The notes beneath the pieces were generated by a model. The model was not told the DNA's origin, did no database searches, and worked only from the letters and a program-made list of their open reading frames with translations. A stretch of 64,000 bases of DNA from an uncultured Alphaproteobacteria bacterium. Its GTDB lineage: Bacteria; Pseudomonadota; Alphaproteobacteria; Rs-D84. Positions 16,070-64,000 of this stretch are shown in pieces. Position numbers and translations under genes: made by a program. The stretch lies in NCBI GenBank assembly GCA_905233975.1, contig CAJOGD010000002.1, positions 1,574 to 65,573 on the forward strand. Reading direction: 5' to 3'. Within the stretch, counting starts at the first letter, position 1. Every line of letters starts with the position of its first letter.

Positions 16070-16603
16070 TTAACGTTTGCTGAACTGGGTCGAACGACGT
16101 GCCTTGCGGAAACCATAGTGTTTACGTTCGACAACGCGGCTATCACGTGTCAGGAAGCCGGCGGCCTTTAATGCCGCACGCAAATCCGGTTCGGATTTTT
16201 CCAATGCCTTGGAAATTCCATGTTTTACGGCGCCCGCCTGGCCCGACAAGCCGCCGCCCATAACCATTGCGAACACGTCATATGCGCCTTCGCGGTTGGA
16301 AACGGCAAACGGTTGATTCAAAATCATTTGCAACACCGGACGACGGAAGTACTCAGCCATCGGACGGTTGTTGATAACGATGTTGCCCTTGCCCGGAACC
16401 ATGTACACACGCGCGACGGAATCTTTGCGCTTTCCCGTTGCATAGATTGCGGTATTCAGTTTCGGGGTTGCCGAGGTTGCGGTTGCTTTTTTGGTCGCCG
16501 CGGCCTTGGTCGTGGTTTTTGCCGCGGTTGTTGTTTTCTTTGCCGGGGCCGCTTTCTTTGCTGTCGTAGCCTTGGCGGTTGTTTTCTTTGTTTCGGTTGC
16601 CAT
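16070..16603 (-). CDS. rpsI: 30S ribosomal protein S9 with an Ala/Thr/Lys-rich N-terminal extension
   Basis: C-terminal core ..[10 protein letters not shown]....G.G.I.IN.......F........GGG..GQAGA..HGISKAL...[16 protein letters not shown]. About 45 low-complexity residues precede it. Confidence 0.95.
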
Positions 16604-17076
16604 TATTCGCCCCTTTTGTTTTTACGATTTAAACCCGCAAAATCAATCACAATCGGATTTTGCGCGGCATGTTTGTGTTCGGCGCCCGCATACACGTGCA
16701 ATTTCGTCAGGCGTTTGTCCGCCAATGCGACCGCGGTGCGACGTCCCATCATGCGCTTTACGGCATTTTTCACGAGCAAAGTCGGCTTTTCAGTGCGCAT
16801 TTGACCCAATGTGCGTTCTTTGATTCCGCCGGGATACGTTGTGTGCCAATAGAATTTCGTCTTATCCGCCTTGGTCCCCGAAAGCGCCACTTTATCGGCG
16901 TTGATAATGATAACATGATCGCCGCAATCCATGTTCGGTGTCCATGTTGGTTTATTCTTGCCCCGCAGGATGTTTGCAACATACGCCGCCAAACGACCCA
17001 ACGTGCAATCGGTTGCGTCAATCAGATACCATTTGGCATCTAATTCGCACTTTTTTAACGATTTTGTCGCCACCAT
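16603..17076 (-). CDS. rplM: 50S ribosomal protein L13
   Basis: KWYLIDA....LGRLA..VA..LRGK.KP..TP..D.GD.VI.INA.KV..TG.K. Its stop overlaps the rpsI start by 1 nt. Confidence 0.95.
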
Positions 17077-17270
17077 TTTTGTTTTACCTTTGTTTTGTTA
17101 AAAGTTCGTGGCACATTATGTCGCAAGTGCGCAGAAAAGTCAAGAAAAATCGTTATGGTATTATTATACCGCAAAATATTTCGGCGTGTACAAAAACAGT
17201 TATAAAAAACTTGAAAAATTGGTGTGGTTTTGCTAGCCTTGGCGGGCAGACCCAAACATGGAGTATAAAA

Positions 17271-29560: not shown

Positions 29561-29602
29561 CTCTGTGGTTAATTCTATCAAAAATCCCAAAATGGGTCAA
29601 GC

Positions 29603-36201: not shown

Positions 36202-38109
36202 TTATCGGGCGGTGGACCATGGTTCGTCATTCATGAACAACCAATACAGCGATTGACTTTCGCGGCCGGGGTTGCGAATGATTGGGCGGACGACGTATAT
36301 ATCGACATCGCATGCGTATCTGTTGTCGGCCTCTTGGGTTTCGACCAGGTCTTGGTAAAACTTTTGCGCGAAATCCATCGCTTGCAAATACGCGGCGTCA
36401 TCGTCCGCGGCGTCGGCCGAATCGCCTGCCCACATCAGCCACATGCCATAGTTCACGACGTTATCTTGGCCTTCGATATCATCGGCGGACAGCAATAAAA
36501 GTGGTTTCATGGTGAGTCCGTTTGTAAATTCGTCCGTCGATGTGTTGGTCCAATCATAGAAATCGCCAAGCAGCCCCAGCACAAAGTGCAACGCGGCAAT
36601 ATCTTCGCCGACGCGTGCGATTCGGCCGGCGTTGCGCATGCTGGAATGAAACAGCCAATCGCGCAACCAACCAGATTTTTCCCCTTGTCGTGCAACTTTT
36701 GCGGCCTTGTTCAAAGTTTTTGTGCCATTGTGTGCGGCCTTGTAAGTTTTGCCAACGTTTTTAAGCCCTTGCCATGCGCGGCTTACCATATTTCCTGTGC
36801 GCGCCTTTTTGTATGCTTTAAGTTCCCGCGCATATTTTATTACGTTTTCAAGTTCTTTGGATTGTTTCGCGTATTCGGCGACATCTTTATCCGCCCGCGC
36901 CATTTTGGACATTTCTTTTTCGGTTTCGGAAATGGCCTTGGTGTTTTCTTCTATCATTTTTGTGAATTTTTCAAGGTCTTCGACTTTATCTACGCCCTCG
37001 CCTGCCTTGCCCAGTTTCCACATATTGTCGGCCTTTAGTTTCCGCGCCGCATCAAGCTGTTTTGCAATTTTTTCATATTTTTTTGAACCTTTGGTTGCCT
37101 TGGCCAGTGCCTTTTCAAGTTTATCAATGGTCTTGATTGTTTTCGTCATGTCGTTCATGTTGTCGATTTGTTTGGTTAGCCGCGCAACTTTTACCGATTC
37201 GCGAACATATTTTTGAACGTTTTCTATTCGCGTTAGCGTCTTCATGTTTTTGCCGATTTTGCCAATTATTCGCGTTGCGCGTGCAGCCTTGGCGCCCGCA
37301 CTTACCGCCGCAAAGCCGCCGAAACTTACCACCGTAAGGGCGATGTCCAATGCGATTTCTGCAAACGATATCCAATGCAGATTTATGTCGCCGGCGATAT
37401 AGTAATTGTTTTTGTCGTTATCATGTTTTGCGGTGTGTTCGTGCAGAACCCGGTGTATCATGGCCCCCCGCATTTTCGCGGTCACACCGGAACGCGTTGA
37501 ACACATGCCGTCCATATCGCGCGGGTAAAGATCCGATATGTTATCGTCAATATATTTCATGGATACTGTATTATTTTTGCCCGGGCCGACCATGTCGCGC
37601 AGTGCGCCCGATTGCACAACCATAATTCCGTACCATGCGGGATCGGTATTCACCCATGTTGCGGTTGCGTCATCGGGCGAAACCGCGGGATTCGGGTCGT
37701 CGGTCGGCAATTCAGTCTTGGTGGCAAGTATAAAGTGTTGTTCCAAAACTTTGGGTTGCGTTTCATAATTCACAACAATTTCGCGGCCGTTTGGAAAGGT
37801 ATATTGTATCGGCAAAAAACGAATGGTTTCGTTTTCGTCGGCATTAATAATTTCCGGACATGACAACACCGTCCCCAATGTTTCGGCGGATTGAAAGGTA
37901 TCGTATATCCATTGTTTAACATCCGATTCGGGGGCGTCCTGAGTAATTTTGTCGGCATTATCGGTCAGTGCGTTCAAGAAAGCACCGCGAACACATGTTG
38001 TATTCATCGGGGCATTCGCGGCAAGTAAATCGCCGGTCTGCTCTATTCCGCCCGCCGCAAACGCAGAAAATGGGAAGAGAAGAAATAAAGACAGAAATAT
38101 ACTTTTCAT
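36202..38109 (-). CDS. large secreted/membrane protein with a Lys-rich coiled coil, unknown function
   Basis: Signal peptide MKSIFLSLFLLFPFSAFA, a central hydrophobic hairpin (..ISFAEIALDIALTVVSFGGFAAVSAGA..), about 200 aa of K/E-rich coiled coil and an acidic C-terminus. The start is 1 nt after the upstream stop. Confidence 0.65.
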   Translation of the reverse strand: MKSIFLSLFLLFPFSAFAAGGIEQTGDLLAANAPMNTTCVRGAFLNALTDNADKITQDAPESDVKQWIYDTFQSAETLGTVLSCPEIINADENETIRFLPIQYTFPNGREIVVNYETQPKVLEQHFILATKTELPTDDPNPAVSPDDATATWVNTDPAWYGIMVVQSGALRDMVGPGKNNTVSMKYIDDNISDLYPRDMDGMCSTRSGVTAKMRGAMIHRVLHEHTAKHDNDKNNYYIAGDINLHWISFAEIALDIALTVVSFGGFAAVSAGAKAARATRIIGKIGKNMKTLTRIENVQKYVRESVKVARLTKQIDNMNDMTKTIKTIDKLEKALAKATKGSKKYEKIAKQLDAARKLKADNMWKLGKAGEGVDKVEDLEKFTKMIEENTKAISETEKEMSKMARADKDVAEYAKQSKELENVIKYARELKAYKKARTGNMVSRAWQGLKNVGKTYKAAHNGTKTLNKAAKVARQGEKSGWLRDWLFHSSMRNAGRIARVGEDIAALHFVLGLLGDFYDWTNTSTDEFTNGLTMKPLLLLSADDIEGQDNVVNYGMWLMWAGDSADAADDDAAYLQAMDFAQKFYQDLVETQEADNRYACDVDIYVVRPIIRNPGRESQSLYWLFMNDEPWSTAR

Positions 38110-38110
38110 A

Positions 38111-39877
38111 TCATCTTATAACAAATGGTTCGGAAACAATGCGTATGGTTGTGGCGTCATCTTCGTCTGGTGCAACCTCCGCTGCTAAATAGACAACCAT
38201 ATTGTTGCTAGCGCATCCACCGTCTGCGATAATTCCTTCGGCAAATTTCTTTATTTGTTCCCGCGCCAATGCATAATTCTTTGTTTTTATTAAATGCATT
38301 CCTCCGGTTAAACCGGTAAAAGTTTGATGATAATTATATAACATTCCTGGGAAACTGACTCTGCCAAGTGCAAATCCCTCACCAGAGCCGCTTGGCTTGG
38401 GATATACTGGGCGCGCCGCAGCTTCAATGGCTGTCTTGGCACCAGAAAACGTGCTTATAACATTGTTTGTATGAAAAGGACCTGTGCATTGACGATTCCT
38501 TTCTGGTAATGAAGTGGTGGATTTTGATAATGTCGTTCCAATATTTTTTACACCATCGTTTCTTATGGCCAGTGGGTATGTCCAATAATTCGCATAGTCG
38601 AACAGTTCCATTTTATCTATACTAATATCTGTTGACGAGCCATTTGGTTCAATGTGAATCGGAATGACCTTGAATTGATCAAGGAAAGAATTGAATTCTG
38701 TCATGTCGGCAGGCGAAGCCTTTTTTAAACAATATTGGACAACGTAATCGGCAATAAAAGAATAAAAGCCGGTTTTGTTATTGTTAATCCATTTGTTTAA
38801 ATCCGTAACACCATTTAAATCGGTCGAAATCTTAGATTTAAATGCAGAATCTTGTGATATGTCCTTTAAACATTGTGGCATGTTTTGAGGATCCGGTGGC
38901 AGGGTTCCACCACCGTTACCACCGCCGTTTCCGCCTCCATTGCCACCGCCGTTTCCGCCTCCATTGCCGCCACTGTTACCACCGCCATTACCCCCACCTG
39001 TGGAACCGCCGCCATTACCACCGCCGTTACCACCGTTGGTGGTCGGGGCTTCTTCTTTTTTGCACTTTGGATCCGTCGGGTGTTCTTTGCAATATTTTTC
39101 CACACATTCCGCCTCATTCGGGCGACGGTTGCAGTATTCGTCGAAATTTTGTGCTTTTAGGCGTTCAAAGAAATTTGCGTCTTCGCCAAGGAAATTCGGT
39201 TTTTTGTATGATTTCAAATCTTTATATGGCTCATACCCTGCGGTGGTGTTAGCAAGCCGGTCTGTGAATGATAAATCCGCGGTTGTTTTTGGAAAATCCG
39301 CCGCACGCAGTGCTGGCGTGGCCGTCGTCATCGATTGTAATCTTTCCAATTCCGCCGCGCGGTCGGCAACGGCGCGCTGGTCCGCGGTGGGTTGTTGTTT
39401 AAACGGATTGGCAATTTCGATGTTTGTTGTTTGCTTTGTGGTTTTAACAGTATTGACCGCGGACGTATTGCCGTATTGTTTTTGAAATTTTTCAAACGTG
39501 GAATCGATATATCCACCACAAGATGTTGCAAAATTATGTCCGGGTAATTGCGATAGTTGCACCATAATTGTTGGGCGAACATCAGAAATGCGCAATCCCG
39601 CACAATAATTATGTTCGGCGCAATATGATGTGACCAGGTTTTCAACAACACGATTGCAATCGCCGGTATTCAAATCCGCACCGTTTGCATAAATTGGCTT
39701 TGGAAAGTTTTGATTATAAGGACTGTTTTTATTCCAAAATGGATTGGACGAGTAATTTTTTACCGACTGAATTTCCCCGTATTGCGAAAGAATTGCCGGT
39801 GCCGTTCCAACCGCATGTGCCGCCCCGGCGCACAACGCCGCGACCGATAATGTCAACAAACAATTGGTTTTTTTCAT
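38111..39877 (-). CDS. large secreted protein with a (GGGN)n tract, unknown function
   Basis: Signal peptide MKKTNCLLTLSVAALCAGAAHA, Cys pairs, and NGGNGGGNGGGSTGGGNGGGNSGGNGGGNGGGNGGGNGGGNGGG encoded at 38907..39042. Confidence 0.65.
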   Translation of the reverse strand: MKKTNCLLTLSVAALCAGAAHAVGTAPAILSQYGEIQSVKNYSSNPFWNKNSPYNQNFPKPIYANGADLNTGDCNRVVENLVTSYCAEHNYCAGLRISDVRPTIMVQLSQLPGHNFATSCGGYIDSTFEKFQKQYGNTSAVNTVKTTKQTTNIEIANPFKQQPTADQRAVADRAAELERLQSMTTATPALRAADFPKTTADLSFTDRLANTTAGYEPYKDLKSYKKPNFLGEDANFFERLKAQNFDEYCNRRPNEAECVEKYCKEHPTDPKCKKEEAPTTNGGNGGGNGGGSTGGGNGGGNSGGNGGGNGGGNGGGNGGGNGGGTLPPDPQNMPQCLKDISQDSAFKSKISTDLNGVTDLNKWINNNKTGFYSFIADYVVQYCLKKASPADMTEFNSFLDQFKVIPIHIEPNGSSTDISIDKMELFDYANYWTYPLAIRNDGVKNIGTTLSKSTTSLPERNRQCTGPFHTNNVISTFSGAKTAIEAAARPVYPKPSGSGEGFALGRVSFPGMLYNYHQTFTGLTGGMHLIKTKNYALAREQIKKFAEGIIADGGCASNNMVVYLAAEVAPDEDDATTIRIVSEPFVIR

Positions 39878-41060: not shown

Positions 41061-43352
41061 ATGTCAGGAGAGAATACAGAATTTCGTGACCTATCCTTGC
41101 GTGAATACGACATCGTCGGAAACGTGTTTCGTGCGTGGTTTGATGATGACGGGTTGGCGGTTGTCGTTGATGAAACCATCGATGAATATAAACCAAATGT
41201 TTTGTTGGTTGTGCGGCCGCGGGATTCGCGCAAGTGGGACGATTTGCTGGCGAACACATATAATATAGATTTGGAATTGGTGCGCCCAAAGAAAGATAAC
41301 AAGTATCAAAAACTTGATGTCGAATACGGTGGTACAGAAATTTATGAAAAATTAATTCGTGAATATGAAAATCATGGCGATATCAAAGGCGCGCTTGCGA
41401 ATTTAATGGATTTTCGTGATGCGGCGGTGCGGCGGTCGGCCCTGGGGCGGTTGAATGCGGCCCAAGAAGAAATGGATTTGGCGACCGCAACCGCGACCAA
41501 GGCGCAAAATTCTATTCGGGGACTTGGGGATCGTGTGCGCAGTTTGCGTGGCAAACTTGCCCGGCAAAAGGAACGTATCGGGCGCGAACCCGCGAAACAG
41601 TCTGCATCAAGAATTCTGCGAACGGAATCCCAAATTGAATCGACCGAAGAAAAAAAAGAACGTGCGGAAAAACGTTTGGAAAATGCGCGGCGGCGTATTG
41701 ATGCCGCAACCGAAGAGATAAATGCCATTAATGCGTTGCTTGCGCGGCGGCGTCCGTCGGTTGATGATGTGGGCGCAAAACCCAAAGTTATAGAGGCCAG
41801 GACCAAAAAAAATAATGTGGCCAAAATGCCTGTGCCCGAAAATGAAAATAAAACAGAAGAAATTAATGAACCCGAGGAATCAGAAATGTCAAAAGAATCA
41901 AATGAAGTCAAACCATTGTTGGACAAAGACCCGGAAATAATGGACGAAGAAATCGCTTTCAAACCGGTTAATTTTGACGATTTACCATCGCCGTATGCGG
42001 ACGAACCGTCGCGTCCTTTGTCGCCGTACGATTCCACCGCGGACGACGAACCAAAGCCAGAGGTTGCTGATGATGCGGGTGACAAAAACGATAAACCTTT
42101 TGGGTTCCCAGAAATGACCACAGAGTCAAGTGCAGAGTTAGAAGCCAAGGACGATGATAAGGCGGTTGATACGCCAGAGTCCGCTGATGTTAATAATGAT
42201 ACAGAATCCAATGTGGCTGAATCCGATTCTTATGCGGTTGAAGAAAAAACTGAATCGGAAGAACCACAGGCGGAAGAAAGTGAGCCTGAAAATGATGGCG
42301 CGCCCGAATCTGATTCAACGTCTTTGACCGAATTTACTGATAATTTTAGGCATGATGATTTGAAAATACACGAATACGCCGATGCGGATAATACAGAAAC
42401 AGATAATGCCGCAACGTCCGTTGAAACCCCGTCGGATTCAGAACATCATAATAATGTCGATGAAGCGCCAAAGCGTCCTTTTACACCAGTGGAGGTTCCA
42501 AAAATGCCTGTTAATAATACAAGACCGATGTCGCCAATTAGTGCCGACGAAAGACCGCGCCCGGTTGGTGGCAAACGTTCAAGTTTTGCGTATTATGTTT
42601 TGTTGATTTTGTTAATTGCATTGTCTGTTTTCACTTTGTGGCTGTACCAGAACAAGCATGGTGGAACGGTGCCTTTCCTTGGCATGGGTGAGCGTGTTGA
42701 ACAACCTGTGTCGAAAGATGCGGACGTTGAACCGGATGTGCCGGTGGTGCCCGCGGTACAAGAGGAACCGGACGAGCCGGTTGTGTTGCCAACGCCGGTG
42801 GTCGAACCGGTACCGGTTGTTGCGCCCGCGCCGGTGGAAAAACCAATAGAGGTACGTTTCCCGAACGATGACATTTTGCGTGGCCCGGAACCAGAAGTCC
42901 CGGTGGTTGAATCAGAAGAAGATGTGTTGGCACGCAAGGCGCCGTATGGGGTTTCGCGTGATGATAAGCCTGTATTCATAGAGGCACCAGAGCCGGTTAT
43001 TGAAACGGTTGTTGAAACTGTGGTTGAAGAACCGGTGATTAATGTGACGACTGTGACAGCGCCTGATGTTATTTTCGAAGACGACGTTGTTTCGGTTCCA
43101 ATGCCGATGATGAATGAAGATGTGGATTTTGAATATGAAAATTCGGCAAATGTTCCGTATGTTCCTGAACCATACGTTGTGGAACAACCGCGTCAGTATG
43201 TCCCGGAACCCCAGTATGTTCCAAAGCCGCAATATGTTGAATCAAACTATGATTATGTGGAAGAGCCCATGGAAGAAACGCGTCGCAATTTGACGATACA
43301 CGACGGTGGGCAATACAGTGTGACGGAAACTGTGGTATACCGGGCAAATTAG
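41061..43352 (+). CDS. large acidic coiled-coil / Pro-rich protein with one central TM helix
   Basis: 763 aa, starting 21 nt after gcrA. Coiled coil at aa ~120-230, a D/E-rich region, the TM helix SFAYYVLLILLIALSVFTLWLY, then a PV/PE-rich segment (..PEPQYVPKPQYV..). No family recognised. Confidence 0.6.
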   Translation: MSGENTEFRDLSLREYDIVGNVFRAWFDDDGLAVVVDETIDEYKPNVLLVVRPRDSRKWDDLLANTYNIDLELVRPKKDNKYQKLDVEYGGTEIYEKLIREYENHGDIKGALANLMDFRDAAVRRSALGRLNAAQEEMDLATATATKAQNSIRGLGDRVRSLRGKLARQKERIGREPAKQSASRILRTESQIESTEEKKERAEKRLENARRRIDAATEEINAINALLARRRPSVDDVGAKPKVIEARTKKNNVAKMPVPENENKTEEINEPEESEMSKESNEVKPLLDKDPEIMDEEIAFKPVNFDDLPSPYADEPSRPLSPYDSTADDEPKPEVADDAGDKNDKPFGFPEMTTESSAELEAKDDDKAVDTPESADVNNDTESNVAESDSYAVEEKTESEEPQAEESEPENDGAPESDSTSLTEFTDNFRHDDLKIHEYADADNTETDNAATSVETPSDSEHHNNVDEAPKRPFTPVEVPKMPVNNTRPMSPISADERPRPVGGKRSSFAYYVLLILLIALSVFTLWLYQNKHGGTVPFLGMGERVEQPVSKDADVEPDVPVVPAVQEEPDEPVVLPTPVVEPVPVVAPAPVEKPIEVRFPNDDILRGPEPEVPVVESEEDVLARKAPYGVSRDDKPVFIEAPEPVIETVVETVVEEPVINVTTVTAPDVIFEDDVVSVPMPMMNEDVDFEYENSANVPYVPEPYVVEQPRQYVPEPQYVPKPQYVESNYDYVEEPMEETRRNLTIHDGGQYSVTETVVYRAN

Positions 43353-54536: not shown

Positions 54537-55292
54537 ATGGCGGGTTTTAATCATTTTACGTCTGAAAACATCGGCCTTTCGGTGCTGGGGCACCTGGTAC
54601 TGATTGGTGTGTTGGTGTTTGTCGCGGGCGTTGTTATTGGCACGCGCGAACGATTCATCGCACCCGACCGGGTTCAGATTATGATGATAGATTTGGCCCA
54701 GGTAAAAGTGACCGGTGATGAGTCCATGTTGTATAATACCAATGTGCCGGATAAAAATGAAAAGCAAGATGTGAAAGAGCCGGAAGTGAAGCCAACACCG
54801 GAACAAGATGCCGCGGCAAAAAGCGAAGAAAAAATTGAAACGCCGACCGTTATCCCCGAAGAAAAACCAAAGCCGGCGGCGGAAAATAAACCCAGGGAAG
54901 AACGGCCTGATGATAAACCGGCGCCGATTAAAAAGACGGTTATTCGCGTAAATCGGAACACAACGACGCTTAATACGGGGCTTTCGGTGTCTATTATTGA
55001 TGCGTTGCGACATAAGATGACGAATTGCTGGGTCATTGACACGTCGCGGCCCGATATTTCGGATATTCGTGCGGTTGCGCATTTAACTATGCGGACGAAT
55101 GGGACGGTTGCAGATGTGTGGTTCGAAAACGCGTCCGCGGCGGATACGAATCCGGCGTTCGCCTATGTGTTGGAAACAATACGTGCCGCAATAAATACGT
55201 GTCAACCCTTGGACATGTTGCCGCGTGGGGAATATAAAACCTGGCGACAAATTCAACTTACTTTCTTTCCATCACAGGGAACGGTGATGTAA
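54537..55292 (+). CDS. TolA/TonB-like protein
   Basis: N-terminal TM helix, a K/E/P-rich linker (..EPEVKPTPEQDAAAKSEEK..) and a C-terminal ~90-aa globular domain. It sits in the position of tolA. Confidence 0.6.
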   Translation: MAGFNHFTSENIGLSVLGHLVLIGVLVFVAGVVIGTRERFIAPDRVQIMMIDLAQVKVTGDESMLYNTNVPDKNEKQDVKEPEVKPTPEQDAAAKSEEKIETPTVIPEEKPKPAAENKPREERPDDKPAPIKKTVIRVNRNTTTLNTGLSVSIIDALRHKMTNCWVIDTSRPDISDIRAVAHLTMRTNGTVADVWFENASAADTNPAFAYVLETIRAAINTCQPLDMLPRGEYKTWRQIQLTFFPSQGTVM

Positions 55293-55467: not shown

Positions 55468-55803
55468 GCCGTAATAGCTGAATGATAAGCCGGATTCTGT
55501 TCCGCCCAAATCCAGTGTCGTTCCGGCGCGTGCGACACCAAACAATTGGGTGGCAAGCATAATTAATCTGCACAATGTGTTGCCACAAAGCGTCAAGCCC
55601 TCTACCCGTTTCCGATTCGGGACAAATCATTGGAAACCTATTTGAAGTTGCTGCACACAGAGATTGCCCGTTTCACTCAGGTTTTCACCTGCTTCGTCAC
55701 TGTTGCTCTAATCGTCAGATTGCTCTGCCCGGCCGTTAACCGGTGTGCCGTCCCGCGCAGTCCGGACTTTCCTCCGCCGCGGAAACCGCGACAGCTATGC
55801 TTT
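55468..55803 (-). ncRNA. rnpB: RNase P RNA (bacterial type A), ends approximate
   Basis: The minus strand contains the universal GAGGAAAGTCCGGAC (rc of 55760..55774) near the 5' end and ACAGAATCCGGCTTATC near the 3' end. P1 pairing is ATAGCTG/CAGCTAT. A terminator hairpin follows. Track ORFs 55409..55630 and 55630..55836 lie inside it. Confidence 0.85.
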
Positions 55804-55950
55804 ATTCAACTATTCGTGATTATAATACGTAAATGAAAAAAAATTGCAAATACTTTTTATAAAAAATTCAAAAAAAAGATATTTTTTGGTTGCGCAATTT
55901 CATGTGATTTTCTACACTGAGTTTCATAGGAATGGATGGAAAGGGATTAA

Positions 55951-58900
55951 ATGTCACGTTTTTTGCGGTTTTTAAAGGTTTTTGTTGTCGCAACCATTTG
56001 CACATTTAGTGCGCTTTCGGCACATGCATGGACCGTTACATTGGTGGATACATCTGCGAAGTACCCCAGTGAGGGTGCCGGGCTTACTCATACGGGCACT
56101 AACGTGACGACATTTCAATCCGGCAGTGTAAATTCTTTCACCCGTCCGTATAGGCCGGGGTATGGTTATGGTGGACACTGGACGGGACAGAATTGTACCG
56201 GAACCCGTATGATAGAACCTAACTTGTTCTATAATACGACGTATTTCCCGGCCGGAACGACTTTTACCGAGGATACAACACTTTACGTCTGTTGGAAATC
56301 GATATTGTCGGCGGTTGGGACGGAATATAGTACCGGGGCAACATGGACACCGCGTGCGATTTTGTTACTTGATGTGAATGGTGGAACCGGCGGAAAATAT
56401 GCTGAGGGGCTTTCTTTCTGGTCGTATAATTCTAACAGTTGGTATGGTGGCGGTACGAGTGGTGTAAATGGTACATGCTATATGGAAAATGTCGGCGGTG
56501 TGGATTTGGTTGGTTTTGATAATTATGGCGATTGGCTTTTACTGGCCACCAATAACAGCGGGACCACCAATTGGGTACGTGTGCATAAACTTGGCTTCGG
56601 TGGCGCCGGCCAGTCGGATCGGTGTTATTTCGCAACCGGTGTCTTTGGGTCGGCCGGTTATACACCACAGCGTGCGAATTATGTCTTTGATGGATATAAC
56701 CAGAATCAGAATGGGAATGGCTTTGGTGTAATCGTCGCGGATGAGACCTATGCCCCATGGAAATTACATGGCGCGGATTATGTGATGAATAACATGCCGG
56801 GTTCTTTTGGCCAGGGTTCAACAAATACCATTTATGCCAAGTGGAAACCGGCGGTGTATCGGGTGAATCTGGCCGGGGCCGGGGTTAGTCCATCGGTGGT
56901 TTATTTGCGGTATGGTGCAACGGATGGCGGCTGGTATGATACCCAGGCGCATGCCGAGGTCGGTGGAAATACTGGTAAATTGACCAGTTTGACCACACAA
57001 CCGTCCAATGGGGACAAGATATTCAAAGGCTATCATGTTGGACAAAATGGTGCCGGGACCCAACTTGTTAGGCAGAATAAGACATTTGTTTATTCATCTG
57101 AGGCGTTGACCGCCATAACAACCAATGGTCAAACGATTTATCCGTATTGGGAAGAACCGCCGGCCGTTTGGTACACATTGACGTTGAATGATAATGGCGC
57201 GCAGACTTCGTCCAATCCGCAGGTGCTGTATTATTCGTCATCGTGTTCGTCAACCGGGTATAGAAGGGTTATGGATTGTTCCTATCCGGTGGTGAACAGC
57301 ATAGTTACCCCGAAAAAGACCGGGTATGCATATGGCGGACATTACAATAATGGGCAAATGTATGTGACCATGGGTGGGGCAATATCGTTTCACCAATTGA
57401 CGAGTGATGTAACCGCCACCGCCACTTGGGCCGCGTTACAGTTTGATGTGAATTATGCGTCCGGTTGGAATGGCAATATTGGTGGTTCGGCGCCAACGAA
57501 TCCAATTCGTTGTACTTATGGTCAGTCGTGTATTGCGCCGGGCAGCGGTTGGACCCATCCGACGGGTTACGTATTCGCGGGCTGGTCCTGTGTTGTGAAT
57601 GGGTCCGGTTATCGTGACGGGGGACAGCAAAACCCCAATGGGACCGCAACGGCCCCATGTGCCCAGGCTGTGTATCACGAGGGCGATTCGCTGAGTGATG
57701 CAACCAATGTTGAAACGGTCGCGGGTATAACCAGTATTACCCTGACGGCGCTATGGATGCCGGATGGAAATAACTATCATAAATTTACTTTGAATAGTAA
57801 TCGTCGTGATGCCGGTGGTAATGATGGCGAAGGTCGGGCCGGAAGTACCGAATCCGCGTTTTATTCGGTTGAAAATGTTGGGTGGTTCCGCGCCAAAGAT
57901 ATTGATGCCCAGATAACCACGACGCCGCCAAACATATTTAGGCCGGTTTCCGAAGGTGGTGGCGGTTTGAACGCCCCAACCCCACCATCGGGCAAGTGGT
58001 TTGTTGGTTATTTTACAAGTCCAGATGAAGGCCAGGGTGTCAAGGCGGTTGACTATGCCGGAAATATATTGGTTACTACCACTCAAAATGGGTTTACCGC
58101 GGACAGAACGTTATATGCGCATTATGCGGATCCGATAACGGTGACATTGCATGCATATTGTGATGGTTATGATGAGTTTAACTGCTATCCTATGCAACCT
58201 AACTGGACCTGTTCAGAATGCAGTGTGACATCAATTCAGGCTGTGCCTGGGCGTCCGTTGCCGGCGATAAGTTGCGCACCAACCAGGAATCAATCGCAGT
58301 TTATCGGGTATTCCAATTCGCGTGAACCGTATCCGCAGGCTGGAACATTGTATTACTATAGCTATGGTTCCGGCAGTGTGAATCCGGCCCTGAGTGTATG
58401 GCCGGATGACGGACCAACAGATTTATGGGCGGTTTGGGAACGCGTGCCGTCCAGTATTCAATATGTTTGTGATACCGGTAACGGGCGAAAAGATCAGGCG
58501 TATTTTAAATGTCCGGAATATACAGTCCTGACGGGTGGAACGCCGGATTTGTGCCCGGGGACCGCGGCAACAAGTTCAAGTACCGGTAAAAAGTTTGAAC
58601 ATTGGCTTTTGGATAATAATCGTGTTTTTACATCGGGACAGCAAGTCAGTTGGGAATATCAGGTACCAAAGGATCTTGTGGCGGCATATCGTACAATTTA
58701 TCGTGTGCAATTGAATCATAATGGCGCCGATAATGCGGCCGGACCAAATGTTGCCTATTTTGCCGGCGGAAGTTGGTATAGTGACGAATATGCCACAGTT
58801 CCGTTATCGGCGATGAATACGGTGCCAACAAAACTTGGGTATCAATTGCGCGGGTATAAAGTGGATGGGACCGATGTGTTTGCGATTGATGAAAATGGTA

Positions 58901-61900
58901 ATTTTATTTCCAATAACAATAACCTTACTTCTGCGATTAATACGAATAATATCACAATAACCGCAAATTGGACGGTCAAGACGTATATAGCGGCGTTGGA
59001 TCCGCAATTCGAAAACGGGGCCACGAACACATCAACCGGAACACAAAAGATTTTCTATAATATAACGCATGGTTGGGTGGCAAGTAATGGTTCAACAACC
59101 CCGGCGTTGCCAATTACGATACCGACCCAGGCGTATAAAATATTTAATGGGTATTATTTGAATCAAAATGGTTCGGGCTATCCAATCATTGATTCGACGG
59201 GTCAAATATTGGTGACGGGTGATGATGCATTGGCGTTGTTTGCGGGCGGCGACGATATAACCCTGTATGCGGCATGGCAAAATATGCCAACGCCACCGCA
59301 AGATGAAAATAGTTATTTTAGGGTGACAACAACGACAAATATGCCCGCGAATACAACGTTTACATTCGGAATGTCGGCGGAAGGTGACTTCTATGTGGAT
59401 TGGGGTGATGGTATCGTTGAAAATATTAGTCGTACCGGTTATGACCAGGCGCCACAGAAATATTCACATACCTATACCGCGGCCTCTGCCGAGGCAAGGG
59501 TTATTAAGATTTGGGGTCTTGCGACGCGTTATAAACCATATTGGTATGCGGCAACGGCGGGAAGTGCAATATCTTTTGGACAAACCTTTGAAGGCCCGAA
59601 TCTTACCGTTATTAATGGTGATGCCCCGATGACACCGGGATTGGTTGCCGGAATATCTGGGTCACTGGGCGCGGTGTTCCCTACGGTTAATGGTGGTGGA
59701 AACCTGAATAATGTTCCCGGGTTCCAGGGTGCGTTTTCTGGCTGTACAAATTTGGCGGGGACCATACCATATAATTTGTTTAGTGGCGTGACCGGTAATC
59801 GTCAAAACATGTTCCTTAAAACTTTTGAGAATACCGCTGTGACGGGTATATCGGGAAATGCTACGCAACAGGCGCAACTGTTTAGTGGTATAACCGGTGC
59901 GGCCGAAGGTTTGTTCCGCGAAACTTTTAGTGGGACGAATATAACGCAAATACCGTCGGCCATATTCAGTGGTGTTTCCGGTGCGGCGGACTATCTGTTT
60001 TATGGAACGTTTTCGGGATGCCGGAGTTTTACCGCCGATGGTAATGGTGACGTGGTTGTTCCGTCTGGCTTGTTCAATGGCGTTTCTGGGGCGGCCAATG
60101 GCATGTTTATGAATACTTTCTATAATACGAATATAACGAAAGTCCCGGCGGATTTGTTTGGTCGTGTTGTTAGTGGGCAATATCAAGGTGTTTCTGGTGC
60201 GGCAGAGTTGATGTTTGCGGCCACGTTTAATGCATCAGACCTTGCAGAAATACCGTCGAATTCATCGGGCAGTTTGTTTGCCAAGGTTATTAATGGGCAA
60301 TATTATGGTGTGACCGGTGCGGCATCACAACTGTTTGCAAGCACGTTCAACAATACGGATATCACAGAAATACCATCTACTCTGTTTGCGGGTATTTCGG
60401 GCGCGGCACCGGAAATGTTTAGGGACACGTTCGGTGGTACGGATATAACGCAAATTCCATCAAGTTTGTTCTCTGGGGTTTCTGGGGCGGATTCGGCAAT
60501 GTTTCAATGGACGTTCCGGGGTTGTACACACCTGACGGGGTTGCCGCATGGGTTGTTTAGTGGTGTAAGGGGAACTGCAGATAAATTGTTTGATAGTACT
60601 TTCATGAACTGTGCAAATCTTACGGGTTATGTGTGGAAAGATCTCTTTAACCTGGGGTCGGGTGGTCTGACATATAATGCAAGTAATAGCATGATGGTTG
60701 ATATATTTAAAAATACCGGTCTTGCGACGTCATGTTCGCCGTATAATCTGACGGAATATACAACCAATTTCAGTTCGTATTGGGAAAACCCGCACAAGGT
60801 GATTTGTGCACCGGAAGTGACGTTTAGTTGCACAATGTCTGGCGTTGGTGGAACGGGAACACCAAATCCGGCAAATGTATGGATGGATCAGATTTCTACG
60901 TTGTCCGCGATGCCCGCATCATCGAATTGTACGGCGCCGGCAAATCACACCGCCACAGGATATTGGAAATGTACCGGTTCAGATAATTGTTCCGGCACCC
61001 CGAATCGTTGGGTCGCGGGCGGTTCATTGCCAACCTGGTTGACCAGTGCCACAACACCGAATGTTCATTTCTATATGGAATATAATCCGAATACGTATGC
61101 TGTGACGTTGAATCCAAATAATGCCAATGGTGGGGCGTCCGGTAATACCAATATGACATTGTATGAAAAATATGGTATTGGTTGGCATACTAATAGCAAT
61201 GGCGCGTTTTCTCCGACTTTTGTTGTGAGTTCATTGCCGGAACCGCAAACGGGTAAGCTTTTTGGTGGGTATTATACCAGTGCGACGGATAGTAATGCCA
61301 CCATGGTGATAAATGCCAGTGGTCAGGTTATTGCAAGCCCGAATACTATCACCAGTAATGGAACGGTTTGGTATGCGCGCTGGAATGATAATAATGGACC
61401 GTTCACAGTGACATTTAAGTGTGAAGAAGGTGGTTCGGCGATTTCTGGTTATAGCTATAGCATAAATCATGGTGCCACTATAAACGTGCCGGCGGCGAAT
61501 AGTTGTTCCAAGGAAGGTCATACGTTTAGCAATTGGAAGATTTTGGCAAATGATGCAACGATTGCCAATACGACGACCACATATCAATGGAATAATCGTT
61601 TTGGTTCGGATATTGTGCCCGATTGGCAGCCGATTCAAACAACGATTACGCTTAATCCGAATCTTCCGACCATTGCGTCCGGGGAACATGCGGGTGAAAT
61701 TGATGGGTCGTTGGTAAATGCGACATACAGTGATTTCGGTCAGACGGCGATATATACACGCTATGACGACGGTGTGTATCGCAGGAATGAAGGTGGCGTG
61801 CTTAGCGAACAGATGTTGTCGGGGCAAAATCCGTTGACATCGTCGCCGGACAAGGCGGTGAATATAACCTTTAATGCGAATGGTGGCCAAATGGTCTTTG

Positions 61901-64000
61901 ATGGCACCACATATCCGAACAATGGTGCACAGTTCAATGTGGTGTTGTATTTACCGTTCCAAGGTTATTTCCTTAGTGGTATGAACACGCCATATATCGG
62001 AACAAGTGGTTACCTTACCGCCCAGGGACATAATCGCGGGAAAAGCAGAACGACCCCCGAAACGTGGGACGCGCGTTGGGAAGATATCAATTTAACAAAC
62101 ACCTATTTCCAGGCCCAAAATATGCTGTTCAACAGCCTGATTCCAACGCGTTCCGACGGTTATGTCTTTGACGGTTGGTATACCGCGGCAACGGGCGGAC
62201 ATCGTATCATGCAAACCGGTACAGGTCAGATAGTGGAAGTAATCGATTCGGATACGCACGAACAGGTGGTCGTAAGCCAGAATATAGAATGGTATGCGCA
62301 CTGGACACCATGCGCCGCCACCGCGAACGCGGATGCGCACGCGGTTCGTGCGGGCGCGACATCGGAAAATGGTCAGTGTGTGTATAACCTTGTCTGCGAA
62401 TTGTGCCCGGACAATGCCCAGGATTGTTATAGTCAACTTGGGGGAACCGATACGACATATTCGTTTAACTTTACCACCGCCCAAACATCTGGAACATTGC
62501 CGTTGTCTTCGGGCGACCAAGTGGCGTCTTGTTCGGCGCGGTCGTATAATATTAACTATGTTATTGGTGATAATGCGACATTGCCGTCCAGTGGAACACC
62601 GATGACATATACATATGGCGAAGGTGCAACAATTAATGGTGTGCCAACCAAGCCAAACGAAGAGTTCCAAGGTTGGTGCACGAGTGATAGTGCACAGACC
62701 TGCCCTATGACACAGACACTGGACAGCGAAGCACATGGTCATAAGACATTCTGGGCACTGTGGGATTGCGCATTTGGGTATAGAAAATATGCCTATGATA
62801 CGATAACGACCGTATATGATGGCAATGGCGGTTACGCGGGTGGATTTTTCGCGGCGGGAACATGTGCACCAATTCGTTATCGGGTGATGTGCGACAAGAA
62901 TTGCCCCAGCGGCGAAACGTGTAATGCGTGTTTGGAAGACTTTAATTTCGGTGCAGCCAATACTGTGAATAAATATAGTTTGGGTTTTGCCTATAATGGT
63001 ATAACCATCAATCAATCAAATTGTGACTCGATGTGGGCTGGGGATCCTTTGCCTGCGCCGGTATATCATGTGGAACAAGATCCACAGCTCTATATTAATA
63101 ATTTCACACAAACGCCTGATCCAAAGTATGCGGAATTGGCCTGTTGGATATATGATAGCGAGCATTTCACTAATCCTGTTGGTAATTATACTAATGGAAA
63201 TTATGTGACGTTTATGCAGACACTTGCAGGTGAAACATATAACCAAAGCATCAATTTTGGCGCAACGCACTATGAATTTGATGGGTTGTGGACGGCGGAC
63301 GGAAGCCAGCAGAATGGTGACGGTATTCAATACGTTAATTCTAGCGGTTGGGTGGGCCAAGGCAATCAGGCCATAACCAGTGAATATGCTTCGAAATTCT
63401 TTGTTCAGGATACACCGGTTTATGCGCATTGGAAACCAAAAGTATATACCATCACATTGGACAAGCAAGATGGAAACGGTGGTTTGTCGCATATATATGA
63501 AAAGTACAATACTGGATGGTCATACCAGGTCCCATCGTCGACAAATCCAAATGTGACGTATCAGCCGGCGGAAGATTTCACATTCAGCAGTTCCCAAATT
63601 CCGTCGAAAACCGGGCATGATTTTGGTGGATATTGGACAGAGACATCTTGTGGCGGAACATTGGTTGTAAATGCCAATGGGACGATGAACGTTAATGCAA
63701 ATAACGGGACGGTGACAGAAACGGTTGGAAATGCCAAGTTCTTTGGTGCCGCAGGCACGCTTTATGCATGCTGGAATCCACAGAGTTTTGAAATAACTTT
63801 GGATAATGCAAATGCGACAACAAATGGAACCGCAACGATATATACCAAGTATGGTGTCGGGGTGTATTTGAATTCTGGGCTGACACACCAAATGACCCCA
63901 AATCCAGATGGGACGTATCCGATAACGGCGCCGGCGCGTTCATACACCGTCACCTATGACCTGAATTATACGGGCAAGCCGAATGATCATCCGGCGGACG
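55951..64000 (+). CDS. giant secreted repeat protein (adhesin-like), 5' partial: InlB-B-repeat-like modules plus an LRR-like block; continues beyond the window
   Basis: It is not in the ORF track. I translated ATG 55951 (GGAAAGGG RBS, in-frame TAA at 55948) by hand through 64000 and found 2,683 sense codons and no stop. Signal peptide MSRFLRFLKVFVVATICTFSALSAHA. Recurrent Y.(V/I)T(L/F)..N.G...P..(T/K)G..F.G(Y/W)..(T/L)(L/W)YA.W modules. Confidence 0.85.
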   Translation, partial: MSRFLRFLKVFVVATICTFSALSAHAWTVTLVDTSAKYPSEGAGLTHTGTNVTTFQSGSVNSFTRPYRPGYGYGGHWTGQNCTGTRMIEPNLFYNTTYFPAGTTFTEDTTLYVCWKSILSAVGTEYSTGATWTPRAILLLDVNGGTGGKYAEGLSFWSYNSNSWYGGGTSGVNGTCYMENVGGVDLVGFDNYGDWLLLATNNSGTTNWVRVHKLGFGGAGQSDRCYFATGVFGSAGYTPQRANYVFDGYNQNQNGNGFGVIVADETYAPWKLHGADYVMNNMPGSFGQGSTNTIYAKWKPAVYRVNLAGAGVSPSVVYLRYGATDGGWYDTQAHAEVGGNTGKLTSLTTQPSNGDKIFKGYHVGQNGAGTQLVRQNKTFVYSSEALTAITTNGQTIYPYWEEPPAVWYTLTLNDNGAQTSSNPQVLYYSSSCSSTGYRRVMDCSYPVVNSIVTPKKTGYAYGGHYNNGQMYVTMGGAISFHQLTSDVTATATWAALQFDVNYASGWNGNIGGSAPTNPIRCTYGQSCIAPGSGWTHPTGYVFAGWSCVVNGSGYRDGGQQNPNGTATAPCAQAVYHEGDSLSDATNVETVAGITSITLTALWMPDGNNYHKFTLNSNRRDAGGNDGEGRAGSTESAFYSVENVGWFRAKDIDAQITTTPPNIFRPVSEGGGGLNAPTPPSGKWFVGYFTSPDEGQGVKAVDYAGNILVTTTQNGFTADRTLYAHYADPITVTLHAYCDGYDEFNCYPMQPNWTCSECSVTSIQAVPGRPLPAISCAPTRNQSQFIGYSNSREPYPQAGTLYYYSYGSGSVNPALSVWPDDGPTDLWAVWERVPSSIQYVCDTGNGRKDQAYFKCPEYTVLTGGTPDLCPGTAATSSSTGKKFEHWLLDNNRVFTSGQQVSWEYQVPKDLVAAYRTIYRVQLNHNGADNAAGPNVAYFAGGSWYSDEYATVPLSAMNTVPTKLGYQLRGYKVDGTDVFAIDENGNFISNNNNLTSAINTNNITITANWTVKTYIAALDPQFENGATNTSTGTQKIFYNITHGWVASNGSTTPALPITIPTQAYKIFNGYYLNQNGSGYPIIDSTGQILVTGDDALALFAGGDDITLYAAWQNMPTPPQDENSYFRVTTTTNMPANTTFTFGMSAEGDFYVDWGDGIVENISRTGYDQAPQKYSHTYTAASAEARVIKIWGLATRYKPYWYAATAGSAISFGQTFEGPNLTVINGDAPMTPGLVAGISGSLGAVFPTVNGGGNLNNVPGFQGAFSGCTNLAGTIPYNLFSGVTGNRQNMFLKTFENTAVTGISGNATQQAQLFSGITGAAEGLFRETFSGTNITQIPSAIFSGVSGAADYLFYGTFSGCRSFTADGNGDVVVPSGLFNGVSGAANGMFMNTFYNTNITKVPADLFGRVVSGQYQGVSGAAELMFAATFNASDLAEIPSNSSGSLFAKVINGQYYGVTGAASQLFASTFNNTDITEIPSTLFAGISGAAPEMFRDTFGGTDITQIPSSLFSGVSGADSAMFQWTFRGCTHLTGLPHGLFSGVRGTADKLFDSTFMNCANLTGYVWKDLFNLGSGGLTYNASNSMMVDIFKNTGLATSCSPYNLTEYTTNFSSYWENPHKVICAPEVTFSCTMSGVGGTGTPNPANVWMDQISTLSAMPASSNCTAPANHTATGYWKCTGSDNCSGTPNRWVAGGSLPTWLTSATTPNVHFYMEYNPNTYAVTLNPNNANGGASGNTNMTLYEKYGIGWHTNSNGAFSPTFVVSSLPEPQTGKLFGGYYTSATDSNATMVINASGQVIASPNTITSNGTVWYARWNDNNGPFTVTFKCEEGGSAISGYSYSINHGATINVPAANSCSKEGHTFSNWKILANDATIANTTTTYQWNNRFGSDIVPDWQPIQTTITLNPNLPTIASGEHAGEIDGSLVNATYSDFGQTAIYTRYDDGVYRRNEGGVLSEQMLSGQNPLTSSPDKAVNITFNANGGQMVFDGTTYPNNGAQFNVVLYLPFQGYFLSGMNTPYIGTSGYLTAQGHNRGKSRTTPETWDARWEDINLTNTYFQAQNMLFNSLIPTRSDGYVFDGWYTAATGGHRIMQTGTGQIVEVIDSDTHEQVVVSQNIEWYAHWTPCAATANADAHAVRAGATSENGQCVYNLVCELCPDNAQDCYSQLGGTDTTYSFNFTTAQTSGTLPLSSGDQVASCSARSYNINYVIGDNATLPSSGTPMTYTYGEGATINGVPTKPNEEFQGWCTSDSAQTCPMTQTLDSEAHGHKTFWALWDCAFGYRKYAYDTITTVYDGNGGYAGGFFAAGTCAPIRYRVMCDKNCPSGETCNACLEDFNFGAANTVNKYSLGFAYNGITINQSNCDSMWAGDPLPAPVYHVEQDPQLYINNFTQTPDPKYAELACWIYDSEHFTNPVGNYTNGNYVTFMQTLAGETYNQSINFGATHYEFDGLWTADGSQQNGDGIQYVNSSGWVGQGNQAITSEYASKFFVQDTPVYAHWKPKVYTITLDKQDGNGGLSHIYEKYNTGWSYQVPSSTNPNVTYQPAEDFTFSSSQIPSKTGHDFGGYWTETSCGGTLVVNANGTMNVNANNGTVTETVGNAKFFGAAGTLYACWNPQSFEITLDNANATTNGTATIYTKYGVGVYLNSGLTHQMTPNPDGTYPITAPARSYTVTYDLNYTGKPNDHPAD
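59731..60648 (+). repeat. about 10 protein-level LRR-like repeats inside the giant gene
   Basis: LF(S/N)G(V/I)(S/T)GAA..(L/M)F..TF.(G/N)T(N/D)IT(Q/E/K)(I/V)P(S/A) units of 24-36 aa. Confidence 0.7.

Follow-up and report, generated by a model that had tools for sequence, protein, structure and literature searches.

A giant repeat-protein gene beside rnpB in a Candidatus Enterousia-like alphaproteobacterium, and its probable role as a fibrillar adhesin-like surface protein

Introduction

BspA of Tannerella forsythia is an example of the BspA-type LRR surface proteins. The Flg_new module has been classed as a stalk domain of fibrillar adhesins (PMC9210967), proteins with a high Thr and a low Leu content (PMC9210967), and is taken to mark adhesin-like proteins of the gut (PMC9723798).

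The DNA considered here is a stretch of 64,000 nucleotides (the window), at the 3' end of which an earlier note had described a giant, truncated gene for a secreted repeat protein. Bacteria of the Enterousia/Rs-D84 group, none of them cultured, are common in the guts of animals and humans. [quoted passage not shown] The LeuS encoded in the window is 82% identical to that of Enterousia-type metagenome-assembled genomes, and the sequence thus assigns the host to the Candidatus Enterousia-like alphaproteobacteria of gut or rumen (order Rs-D84). Outer-membrane markers within the window are TonB-ExbBD and a separate autotransporter with a YadA anchor.

Results

The open frame and its locus

Direct translation of frame +1 from the ATG at 55951–55953 gave 2,683 codons with zero stops up to the window end at 64000, in agreement with the earlier note, and the remaining five frames of 55951–64000 contained 35–199 stops. 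With a probability of a stop per codon of 0.055, as follows from the regional base composition, the odds of such a stop-free run are about 1e-66. The in-frame TAA reported just upstream was found at 55948–55950, so that this ATG is the earliest possible start, and the ribosome-binding site said to precede it corresponds to the sequence given in Table 1. The frame is indeed missing from the supplied list of open reading frames, which excludes those running off an end; the gene was rightly described as a real one cut by the window end.

Table 1. Features of the giant gene and its upstream flank (positions in the window; aa, residues of the giant protein).
Feature	Position	Strand	Evidence or remark
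tonB	54537-55292		together with rnpB marks the conserved insertion site
RNase P RNA gene rnpB, directly upstream of the giant gene	55470..55813	-	Rfam RF00010, 190 bits
Shine-Dalgarno-like GGAAAGGG	55938..55945	+	5 nt 5' of the start codon; read from sequence
Start codon and predicted Sec-type signal peptide, aa 1-26, cleavage after SAHA	55951..56028	+	inspection and orthologue conservation
N-terminal array of ~10 diverged Flg_new/InlB-B-repeat-like modules, aa 27-1117	56029..59301	+	self-trained HMM
PKD-like beta-sandwich head, aa 1118-1245 (approximate boundaries)	59302..59685	+	AF2, Foldseek/BFVD
Ten-rung BspA/LRR_5-like solenoid, aa ~1246-1585	59686..60705	+	rung register, AF2, BFVD
Cap at the C-terminal end of the solenoid block, aa 1586-1640	60706..60870	+	family conservation; AF2 pLDDT 49-87
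Second module array, aa 1641-2120	60871..62310	+	self-trained HMM, Pfam, AF2
Segment shared with the L001 orthologue, 90.6% DNA identity	61611..64000	+	blastn, per-segment dN/dS
Two Cys-rich stretches (aa 2121-2197, 2271-2351) around a Pfam-detectable Flg_new module (aa 2198-2270)	62311..63003	+	Cys positions, Pfam
Three to four more Flg_new-like modules, aa 2352-2683, frame still open	63004..63999	+	translation, HMM

The same tonB and rnpB neighbours were present on two further contigs (L082 and L083), and the order of the locus in relatives is conserved as argS...ruvB-exbBD-tonB-rnpB, the giant gene, a lipoprotein gene and secA. At this site relatives encode giant proteins of 4,590, 3,114 and >3,500 aa, with the length of orthologues ranging from 2,560 to 4,590 aa. 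A search of 5.8 billion proteins with the giant protein returned four homologues only, the product of the window itself not being among them. Across all 2,683 aa the order of modules is collinear with that of the 4,590-aa orthologue (P0001), whose residues 2240–2570 align with the last modules of the window. A scan of genome contigs with the giant protein, meant to extend the gene past 64000, matched no relative, and the best relative of the last 583 aa among metagenome contigs was 41% identical; the full-length product probably comprises 3,000–4,600 aa. The GC content of the gene is that of the rest of the window. DNA repeats within the gene do not exceed 36 nt and tandem arrays are absent, which makes a collapse of repeats unlikely for the sequenced part.

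Flg_new/InlB B-repeat modules

The product holds about 13–19 diverged modules of 75–120 aa each. The three parts of the module signature proposed earlier, written as regular expressions, matched 0, 1 and 2 times, so that the literal signature is over-specified and a self-trained module HMM was used in its place. This profile found 13 strong copies (i-E <1e-9) and about five weak or partial ones, by which the claimed number of at least 15 modules is about right, and the four modules that had been given as examples (56860..57150, 58699..58971, 61096..61383 and 63445..63777) are in frame and can be aligned with each other. In the N-terminal array the HMM matched aa 6–126, 168–299, 285–406, 400–504, 580–736, 891–1014 and 999–1117, with weak matches at aa 497–585 and 744–840; some modules of this array, which forms the hypervariable part of the allele, have long insertions or paired cysteines. 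The second array begins with a short Cys-containing module, continues with a long module (aa 1716–1811) and a short one (aa 1818–1892), and extends to aa 2118. The Cys-rich region following it is 97–99% identical to P0001 and is kept in two other orthologues (P0002 and P0003).

Segment-wise scans and self-built profiles were needed because searches of Pfam and of PDB sequences with the whole protein were nearly blank. The Pfam model PF09479 (Flg_new), proposed in the earlier note as a check, scored 35.4 bits on aa 1821–2200, above the cut-off of 27, and 23.3 bits on the whole protein; both the Flg_new and the Flg_new_2 matches in the second array and Cys-rich region lie within aa 1821–2200. 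TIGR02543 reached 22.2 on the whole protein (cut-off 20.95), and orthologues gave Flg_new scores of 59–101 bits. Only about three of the approximately 18 modules are individually detectable by the Pfam model, the rest being too diverged. A profile made from ten window modules and compared with PDB sequences had InlB as its sole match (E 3.4e-4). The structure of one 100-aa module (aa 1714–1813), predicted with AF2 as had also been suggested, is confident (pLDDT 91.6), and Foldseek placed the 72-aa InlB B-repeat 2y5p_D first among PDB entries, with a probability of 0.97, a TM-score of 0.61 on the target and a weak E-value of 0.086; after the InlB entries came other ubiquitin-like folds. Judged from these profiles and this model, the modules are relatives of the InlB B-repeat/Flg_new type with a predicted beta-grasp fold, and the match of a 100-aa module to a 72-aa repeat fits the earlier description of an expanded version of that fold.

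The PKD-like head and the solenoid

An LRR-like block, also described earlier, was located at aa 1118–1640 as a block of 520 aa in which a PKD-like head is followed by ten rungs of 28–40 aa. The head carries the motif FRVTTT...FTFGMSAEGDFYVDWGDG...YSHTY...IKIWG, and its AF2 model has strands at block residues 6–76 (pLDDT 84–97). The predicted fold resembles PKD-annotated phage proteins in Foldseek/BFVD and a WGDG motif is present. The Pfam PKD models (PF00801 and PF18911) had no match on the window copy; among members of the block family, sub-threshold PKD matches occurred in 12 of 50 (best E 0.002), and some homologues carry a precomputed PKD match.

The rungs follow the motif G[VI][ST]GAA..[ML]F..TF..C..LT.IP..LF, and the solenoid was modelled with a pLDDT of 86.5 and a pTM of 0.87. 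In Foldseek/BFVD the model matched an LRR protein (E 1.4e-9), a 26-residue-repeat protein (4.4e-9), an LRR_5 protein (2.9e-8) and a BspA-family protein (5.2e-5); these targets are predicted viral structures with automatic names, so the matches give the fold class only. Against the PDB the solenoid had no significant neighbour, the best being the LRR of LGR4 (E 5e-3). Even at E<=1, LRR_5 (PF13306) had no match on the window protein, whether searched whole or in segments, with sub-threshold matches in five of 50 block-family members (best E 0.0022), and no Pfam or NCBIfam match was obtained for DUF285 or the 26-residue repeat (PF03382, TIGR02167), the measured period being 28–40 aa. Of the Pfam models named in the earlier note, LRR_5, DUF285 and PKD thus all remained below threshold on the window copy. 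The cap motif ...MMVDIFKNTGLATSC.P...Y....WE...V.C is kept across the block family, for which a limit of E<=1e-3 gave 8,704 representatives and one of E<=1e-30 gave 1,910. The family is diverse and paralogous; its unnamed members number in the thousands and many are giant, the longest having 7,626 aa. In P0001 the head-solenoid block is present twice.

Export signal, composition and C-terminus

At the N-terminus, MSRFLRFLKVFVVATICTFSALSAHA followed by W, the n-region is basic, the hydrophobic core spans 13 residues and an A-x-A site is present. The first 24 residues are the same in P0001, with similar ones in P0002 and P0003, and both inspection and this conservation in three orthologues favour the predicted Sec signal peptide of the earlier note. 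The ATIC at residues 14–17 was checked as a lipobox and is not canonical, for which reason the giant protein was not called a lipoprotein. The part of the protein within the window has a high content of T, G, N and S and a low one of L, K and E; its 49 Cys bear out the Cys-rich linkers noted before.

The full-length orthologues P0001 and P0003 both end in one 65-aa C-terminal domain, which small family members share. This domain had no Pfam or PDB relative, and a word-indexed search with it returned unnamed fragments only. In Pfam searches the orthologues lacked an autotransporter barrel, RTX, LPXTG and any further known anchor, as well as a known outer-membrane export domain for a protein of 300–500 kDa; the YadA-anchor protein elsewhere in the window was picked up normally. 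Type I RTX adhesins have RTX repeats and a T1SS signal at the C-terminus but lack a Sec signal peptide. Export by the type V autotransporter or type I RTX route was rejected, as neither a T5SS barrel nor RTX was seen by Pfam in the window part, P0001 or P0003, and a Sec signal peptide is predicted.

A mosaic allele

Compared by blastn with the orthologue on contig L001, the DNA is 98.4% identical from rnpB across the promoter to the signal peptide, and over the next 5.5 kb identity is undetectable or at most 72%, with dS saturated. Similarity returns in the 3' segment of Table 1 and reaches 98% DNA identity within aa 2101–2500. Some segments have a dS of 0.05 relative to the orthologue, others one of more than 1.5. 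Compared with its closest relative, the allele is a mosaic. The dN/dS ratio lies between 0.24 and 0.41 in every segment, dS being saturated in the variable part, and the giant frame is a real coding gene under purifying selection.

Discussion

Giant adhesin-like proteins of the Flg_new/LRR type are a familiar class, and the presence of one in a gut microbe is expected. We infer, with a probability of about 0.7, that the gene encodes a surface-displayed, recombining, fibrillar adhesin-like protein for attachment to a partner or host; a long protein with a predicted secretion signal and a repeated array of stalk domains, as found here, is the description by which fibrillar adhesins are recognized. 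The protein would be exported via Sec and displayed on or outside the outer membrane. Its beta-grasp Flg_new modules, strung together in a long and flexible chain, would serve as a stalk and might in addition bind weakly. On this chain at least one putative ligand-binding unit, the PKD-like head followed by the BspA/LRR_5-like solenoid, would be borne together with Cys-rich inserts presumably stabilized by disulfides. The metabolically dependent bacterium could thereby attach to host mucosa, mucus or partner cells, and the exposed N-terminal 5.5 kb would be swapped between strains by recombination. A binding role of the LRR and Flg_new folds is suggested only by analogy.

The variability could also be read as that of a surface coat or decoy antigen with no specific ligand, which shields the cell or permits escape from host IgA or phage. 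Such a function would suit the abrupt mosaic, in which a saturated N-terminal 5.5 kb lies between conserved flanks, as well as the large, diverse and paralogous block family, but the dN/dS of 0.3–0.4 even in the variable part leaves no positive selection visible, though dS is saturated there. Furthermore, LRR and Flg_new folds are typically ligand-binding, and a single elongated chain differs from the lattice-forming S-layer type, so that a pure coat is considered unlikely. That the protein is a stalk which delivers an effector or toxin, situated at the C-terminus past the window end in the manner of polymorphic toxins, CDI or MAFB, is very improbable. Giant filamentous proteins with variable parts often bear toxins, the C-terminus does lie past the window end and, in relatives, the gene next to the giant one on its downstream side is small and conserved; the full-length P0001 and P0003, however, contain no toxin, hydrolase or pre-toxin domain detectable by Pfam, and they terminate in the 65-aa domain that also terminates small family members. 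The variable part is moreover N-terminal instead of C-terminal, and the downstream gene codes for a lipoprotein and no obvious immunity protein.

An origin as a receptor-binding or tail-fibre-like protein of an integrated phage element can be given hardly any credence: the best structure matches of the solenoid are to phage LRR/BspA/PKD proteins (E down to 1.4e-9), but hits in a viral library identify a fold class only, the gene is surrounded by housekeeping genes whose synteny is conserved (argS, ruvB, exbBD-tonB, rnpB, secA) and by no phage genes, the GC content matches its surroundings and a Sec signal peptide is predicted. Finally, the probable origin of the sequence from a metagenome assembly, and a frame break adjoining an internally duplicated stretch in the giant gene of L082, might suggest an assembly chimera or a decaying pseudogene open by accident, which is next to impossible to reconcile with the odds of the open frame, purifying selection in all segments, the collinearity with P0001 and the lack of long DNA repeats that could be mis-joined.

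For the favoured adhesin-like protein, a rather doubtful extension may be formulated, in which it would be the main attachment device of a tiny-genome, partner-dependent gut alphaproteobacterium and part of a large uncatalogued system (PKD-like head, 28–30-aa BspA-like solenoid and 65-aa C-terminal domain), that domain marking an undescribed surface-sorting or outer-membrane export route like the T9SS C-terminal domain in Bacteroidota. The gene, with at least 8 kb, would account for about 1% or more of a genome smaller than 1 Mbp, and in the closest relative it measures 13.8 kb. A surface-protein locus that is conserved yet recombining is a candidate for a function in contact with host or partner, and such a role would bear on how Enterousia/Rs-D84 bacteria obtain metabolites. 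Two annotation gaps, each of which could be filled with a family model, emerge as well: the head-solenoid block, which has cluster representatives in the thousands but is covered by neither Pfam nor NCBIfam, and the shared, unannotated 65-aa C-terminal domain.

Comparison with known systems

The closest described modules are those of Flg_new/List_Bact_rpt (PF09479, TIGR02543; prototype InlB B-repeat 2y5p), with which the window modules share the core motif P.k.GY.F.GWY...G...YA.W, the predicted beta-grasp fold and the occurrence as tandem modules in large surface proteins of gut-associated microbes. Most window modules are longer, however (90–120 aa against 65–72 aa), owing to residues inserted behind the first strand and to a long loop preceding the last one; several have paired cysteines, and the host is an alphaproteobacterium and not a Firmicute, Bacteroidete or archaeon. 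The head-solenoid block has in common with BspA-type LRR proteins (LRR_5 PF13306; TIGR02167/DUF285) a solenoid of short rungs with an F..C..L..I.IP-type core in a secreted, host-associated context. It differs from them by a rung of 28–30 aa (up to 40) against about 23–26 aa, by its own motif GISGAPA..MF..TF, and by a fixed PKD-like head before and a Cys-containing cap after the solenoid.

As a whole, the predicted protein resembles the fibrillar adhesins or periscope proteins of Monzon and Bateman (PMC9210967) in its very great length, its N-terminal export signal, its chain of stalk domains with a distinct putative binding module, its Thr-rich and Leu-poor composition and the difference in length between strains. 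In contrast to these, with their near-identical tandem copies and a binding module at the tip, it has highly diverged repeats and an internal putative binding module, and the host is a diderm without a recognized outer-membrane export domain. The giant surface proteins Giant1-5 of Apilactobacillus kunkeei (PMC12863079), a host-associated symbiont, are likewise extracellular and encoded by multi-kilobase genes, a gene of this kind occupying about 1% or more of the small genome, but they belong to an unrelated lineage and have another domain content, and in the Enterousia-like bacterium a single such gene occupies the locus.

The giant gene and its locus

Translation of frame +1 from window position 55951 to 64000 gives 2,683 stop-free codons, a run expected by chance at about 1e-66 given the local base composition, and the remaining five frames of the region contain 35–199 stops. 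This confirms the main observation of the earlier note, a giant gene open to the window end; its absence from the ORF track is likewise borne out, since the lister leaves out ORFs that run off an end. The start of the gene is well defined (see table). The N-terminus of the product, MSRFLRFLKVFVVATICTFSALSAHA/W, shows the tripartite build of a Sec signal peptide and a Sec-type signal is kept in the orthologues, in agreement with the export signal predicted earlier. Within the window part of the gene neither DNA repeats above 36 nt nor tandem arrays were found, so that collapse of identical repeats is no concern there; an assembly artefact or a pseudogene is very improbable. The spacer between rnpB and the giant gene (55814–55950, 137 nt) is AT-rich and carries a promoter-like site for rnpB (55850–55822, minus strand), and the promoter scan of this upstream spacer gave nothing sigma-70-like that would serve the giant gene.

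The gene lies directly after tonB and rnpB, an arrangement also present in the related contig L082, and in two further contigs, L001 and L083, a conserved lipoprotein gene comes directly after it, with an opposite-strand gene of 71 codons and secA next. The lipoprotein (lipobox LVGC or AAAC, shared motif LRPR[IF]ALS.NV.G), for which no family match was found, is a possible partner for the giant protein. The orthologues P0001 and P0003 comprise 4,590 and 3,114 aa, and the window protein aligns collinearly with aa 1–2,570 of P0001, which together make a full length of more than 3,000 aa likely. The third orthologue, P0002, has 2,560 aa, after which the frame breaks and continues for at least 954 more codons. 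In L082 the break lies at about 17424–17470, after ...KEYTINPLGSRG*, and the stretch ...KEYTINLDKN...EKWGETW... from this site recurs within the following codons; a genuine frameshift or deletion is one possible cause of the break, mis-joining of long internal duplicates another. Extra inserted domains beginning ...GY..L.YI...G.QYIDTGI... occur in P0001 (aa ~2760–2900 and ~3100–3290) and P0003 (aa ~2290–2440); they have no Pfam match and are absent from the window part of the giant protein.

Features of the window and of the orthologous loci
Feature	Position	Strand	Remarks
rnpB, RNase P RNA	55470–55813	-	RF00010, 190 bits; 137 nt upstream of giant gene, opposite strand
Giant-gene start	ATG 55951; TAA 55948–55950; GGAAAGGG 55938–55945	+	GGAAAGGG 5 nt upstream; read from sequence
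Head-solenoid block	59302–60870 (aa 1118–1640)	+	three parts: head, rungs, cap
Lipoprotein gene after giant gene	L001 14145–14795; L083 9956–10546	+	about 200–216 aa; outside window
YadA-like anchor ORF	33086–34879	-	597 aa; C-terminal PF03895, 35.4 bits (cut-off 22.7)
ORF	36202–38109	-	635 aa; signal-peptide-like N-terminus
ORF	38111–39877	-	588 aa; signal-peptide-like N-terminus
ORF	26945–29590	-	881 aa; signal-peptide-like N-terminus
ORF	41061–43352	+	763 aa

Repeat modules and the head-solenoid block

The four example modules proposed earlier are in frame and align with one another; the literal signature given for them is too strict, its three parts matching 0, 1 and 2 times as regular expressions. 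An HMM refined iteratively with the window protein and its four homologues detected 13 strong modules in the window protein, besides about five that are weak or partial; the rest of the window gave none. TIGR02543 (Listeria-Bacteroides repeat) scores above its cut-off, Flg_new (PF09479) reaches 35.4 bits on aa 1821–2200 (cut-off 27) besides a trace of Flg_new_2, and the orthologues score 59–101 bits with Flg_new. Internalin B was the only match when a profile from ten window modules was compared with PDB sequences (E 3.4e-4). An AlphaFold2 model of one module (aa 1714–1813, 26 paralogous modules as input; pLDDT 91.6) had the InlB B-repeat entries as best PDB matches (prob 0.97, E 0.086, TM 0.61 on the 72-residue target); other ubiquitin-like folds ranked next. 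The HMM scores, the profile match and the model thus support the suggested kinship with InlB B-repeats, and the modules are predicted to be enlarged, strongly diverged beta-grasp B-repeats.

The head-solenoid block, previously described as LRR-like, opens with a beta-sandwich head that bears the PKD-like motif FYVDWGDG...YSHTY, continues with ten rungs of 28–40 aa (motif G[VI][ST]GAA..MF..TF..C..LT.IP..LF) and closes with a Cys-containing cap. Its AlphaFold2 model (50 homologues; pLDDT 86.5, pTM 0.87) found no significant neighbour in the PDB, the best being the LGR4 LRR ectodomain (E 5e-3), and matched predicted viral protein structures significantly (E 1.4e-9 to 5e-5), annotated as leucine-rich repeat, 'bacterial surface protein 26-residue repeat', LRR_5, BspA-family and PKD. 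Among 50 family members, five give a sub-threshold score with the Pfam model for LRR_5 and 12 with that for PKD; neither model scores on the window copy, and NCBIfam found nothing on the block. The block is therefore, as modelled, of BspA type by fold, in keeping with the LRR-like description, and an uncatalogued variant by sequence.

A word-indexed search for the block family returned at least 230 matches, all unnamed or 'hypothetical protein' entries of Alphaproteobacteria MAGs, and an exhaustive profile search returned 8,704 cluster representatives at E ≤ 1e-3 (1,910 at E ≤ 1e-30). Proteins as long as 7,626 aa are among them, and a single protein can contain as many as 18 matched stretches. 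A domain of about 65 aa (C...C...LH.G.....L.....TP.L.V...G...CYVPL.........N......YH...), without a Pfam or PDB relative, is shared by P0001, P0003 and 80 of the 266 family proteins that were retrieved, and lies nearly always at the extreme C-terminus; the proteins ending in it range from about 540 to 7,626 aa. Located beyond the window in the orthologues, it is a candidate sorting or anchoring signal.

Mosaic evolution

Compared with L001, positions 55709–56027 (rnpB through the signal peptide) show 98.4% DNA identity, the next 5.5 kb of the giant gene is undetectable or at most 72% identical, and identity is 90.6% from 61611 to the window end. Correspondingly, dS is 0.05 for aa 1–26 (dN/dS 0.31), saturated at >1.5 in all four sub-segments of aa 27–1890 (dN/dS 0.31–0.41), 0.55 for aa 1891–2100 (0.25), 0.05 for aa 2101–2500 (0.24) and 0.42 for aa 2501–2683 (0.27). 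These values indicate a functional gene whose segments have different histories, the simplest explanation of which would be that recombination between strains has replaced the presumably exposed N-terminal part.

Host and candidate role

The window carries the housekeeping genes leuS, argS, ruvB, hisS and trigger factor, together with an EnvZ/OmpR-like pair, ExbBD-TonB, tRNAs and RNase P RNA. Its LeuS shares 82% identity with that of gut MAGs, ruminant and other, which carry the label Alphaproteobacteria or Candidatus Enterousia. For Enterousia (order Rs-D84), PMC12306168 reports genomes of <1 Mbp, a lack of respiration and of most biosynthesis, and a lifestyle probably at the expense of other cells. 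The listed leuS ORF (GTG 16938; 16938–19673, plus strand) matches the LeuS family only from residue 122, its upstream part overlaps ORF 16603–17076 on the other strand, and translation probably begins some 360 nt downstream of the listed start.

The 597-aa ORF with a YadA-like anchor encodes a trimeric-autotransporter-type adhesin, which demonstrates an outer membrane and type Vc secretion in this organism. The 635-, 588-, 881- and 763-aa ORFs, without Pfam or NCBIfam matches, may encode additional proteins that are secreted or lie at the surface; a low-complexity start rich in Thr/Arg/Asn and a Cys-rich end mark the 881-aa product.

Flg_new modules, which form a long chain in the giant protein, are treated in the literature as fibrillar-adhesin stalk domains (PMC9210967) and as markers of gut adhesin-like proteins (PMC9723798); the LRR-type solenoid is, by analogy, a binding fold. 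Taken with predicted Sec export, many cysteines, a composition rich in Thr/Gly/Asn/Ser, variability between strains and a partner-dependent host, these features suggest, with a probability of roughly 70%, that the giant protein is fibrillar, adhesin-like and displayed at the cell surface. In the orthologues, neither an autotransporter barrel nor RTX repeats nor any other known anchor was found. A non-adhesive variable coat or decoy is an unlikely alternative reading of such a protein. Much less probable is a stalk for a C-terminal toxin, as the full-length orthologues contain none, and a phage origin is hardly credible, because the gene sits among housekeeping genes in conserved synteny and the structural matches to viral proteins identify the fold only.

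The interpretation of the gene in the earlier note is thus supported overall, and giant Flg_new/LRR surface proteins of gut microbes are an already known kind. What is new is the lineage of the host, a tiny-genome alphaproteobacterium, the uncatalogued BspA-like solenoid family with 28–30-aa rungs and a PKD-like head, the unannotated C-terminal domain of this family, and the sharp, apparently recombinational mosaic within the gene.
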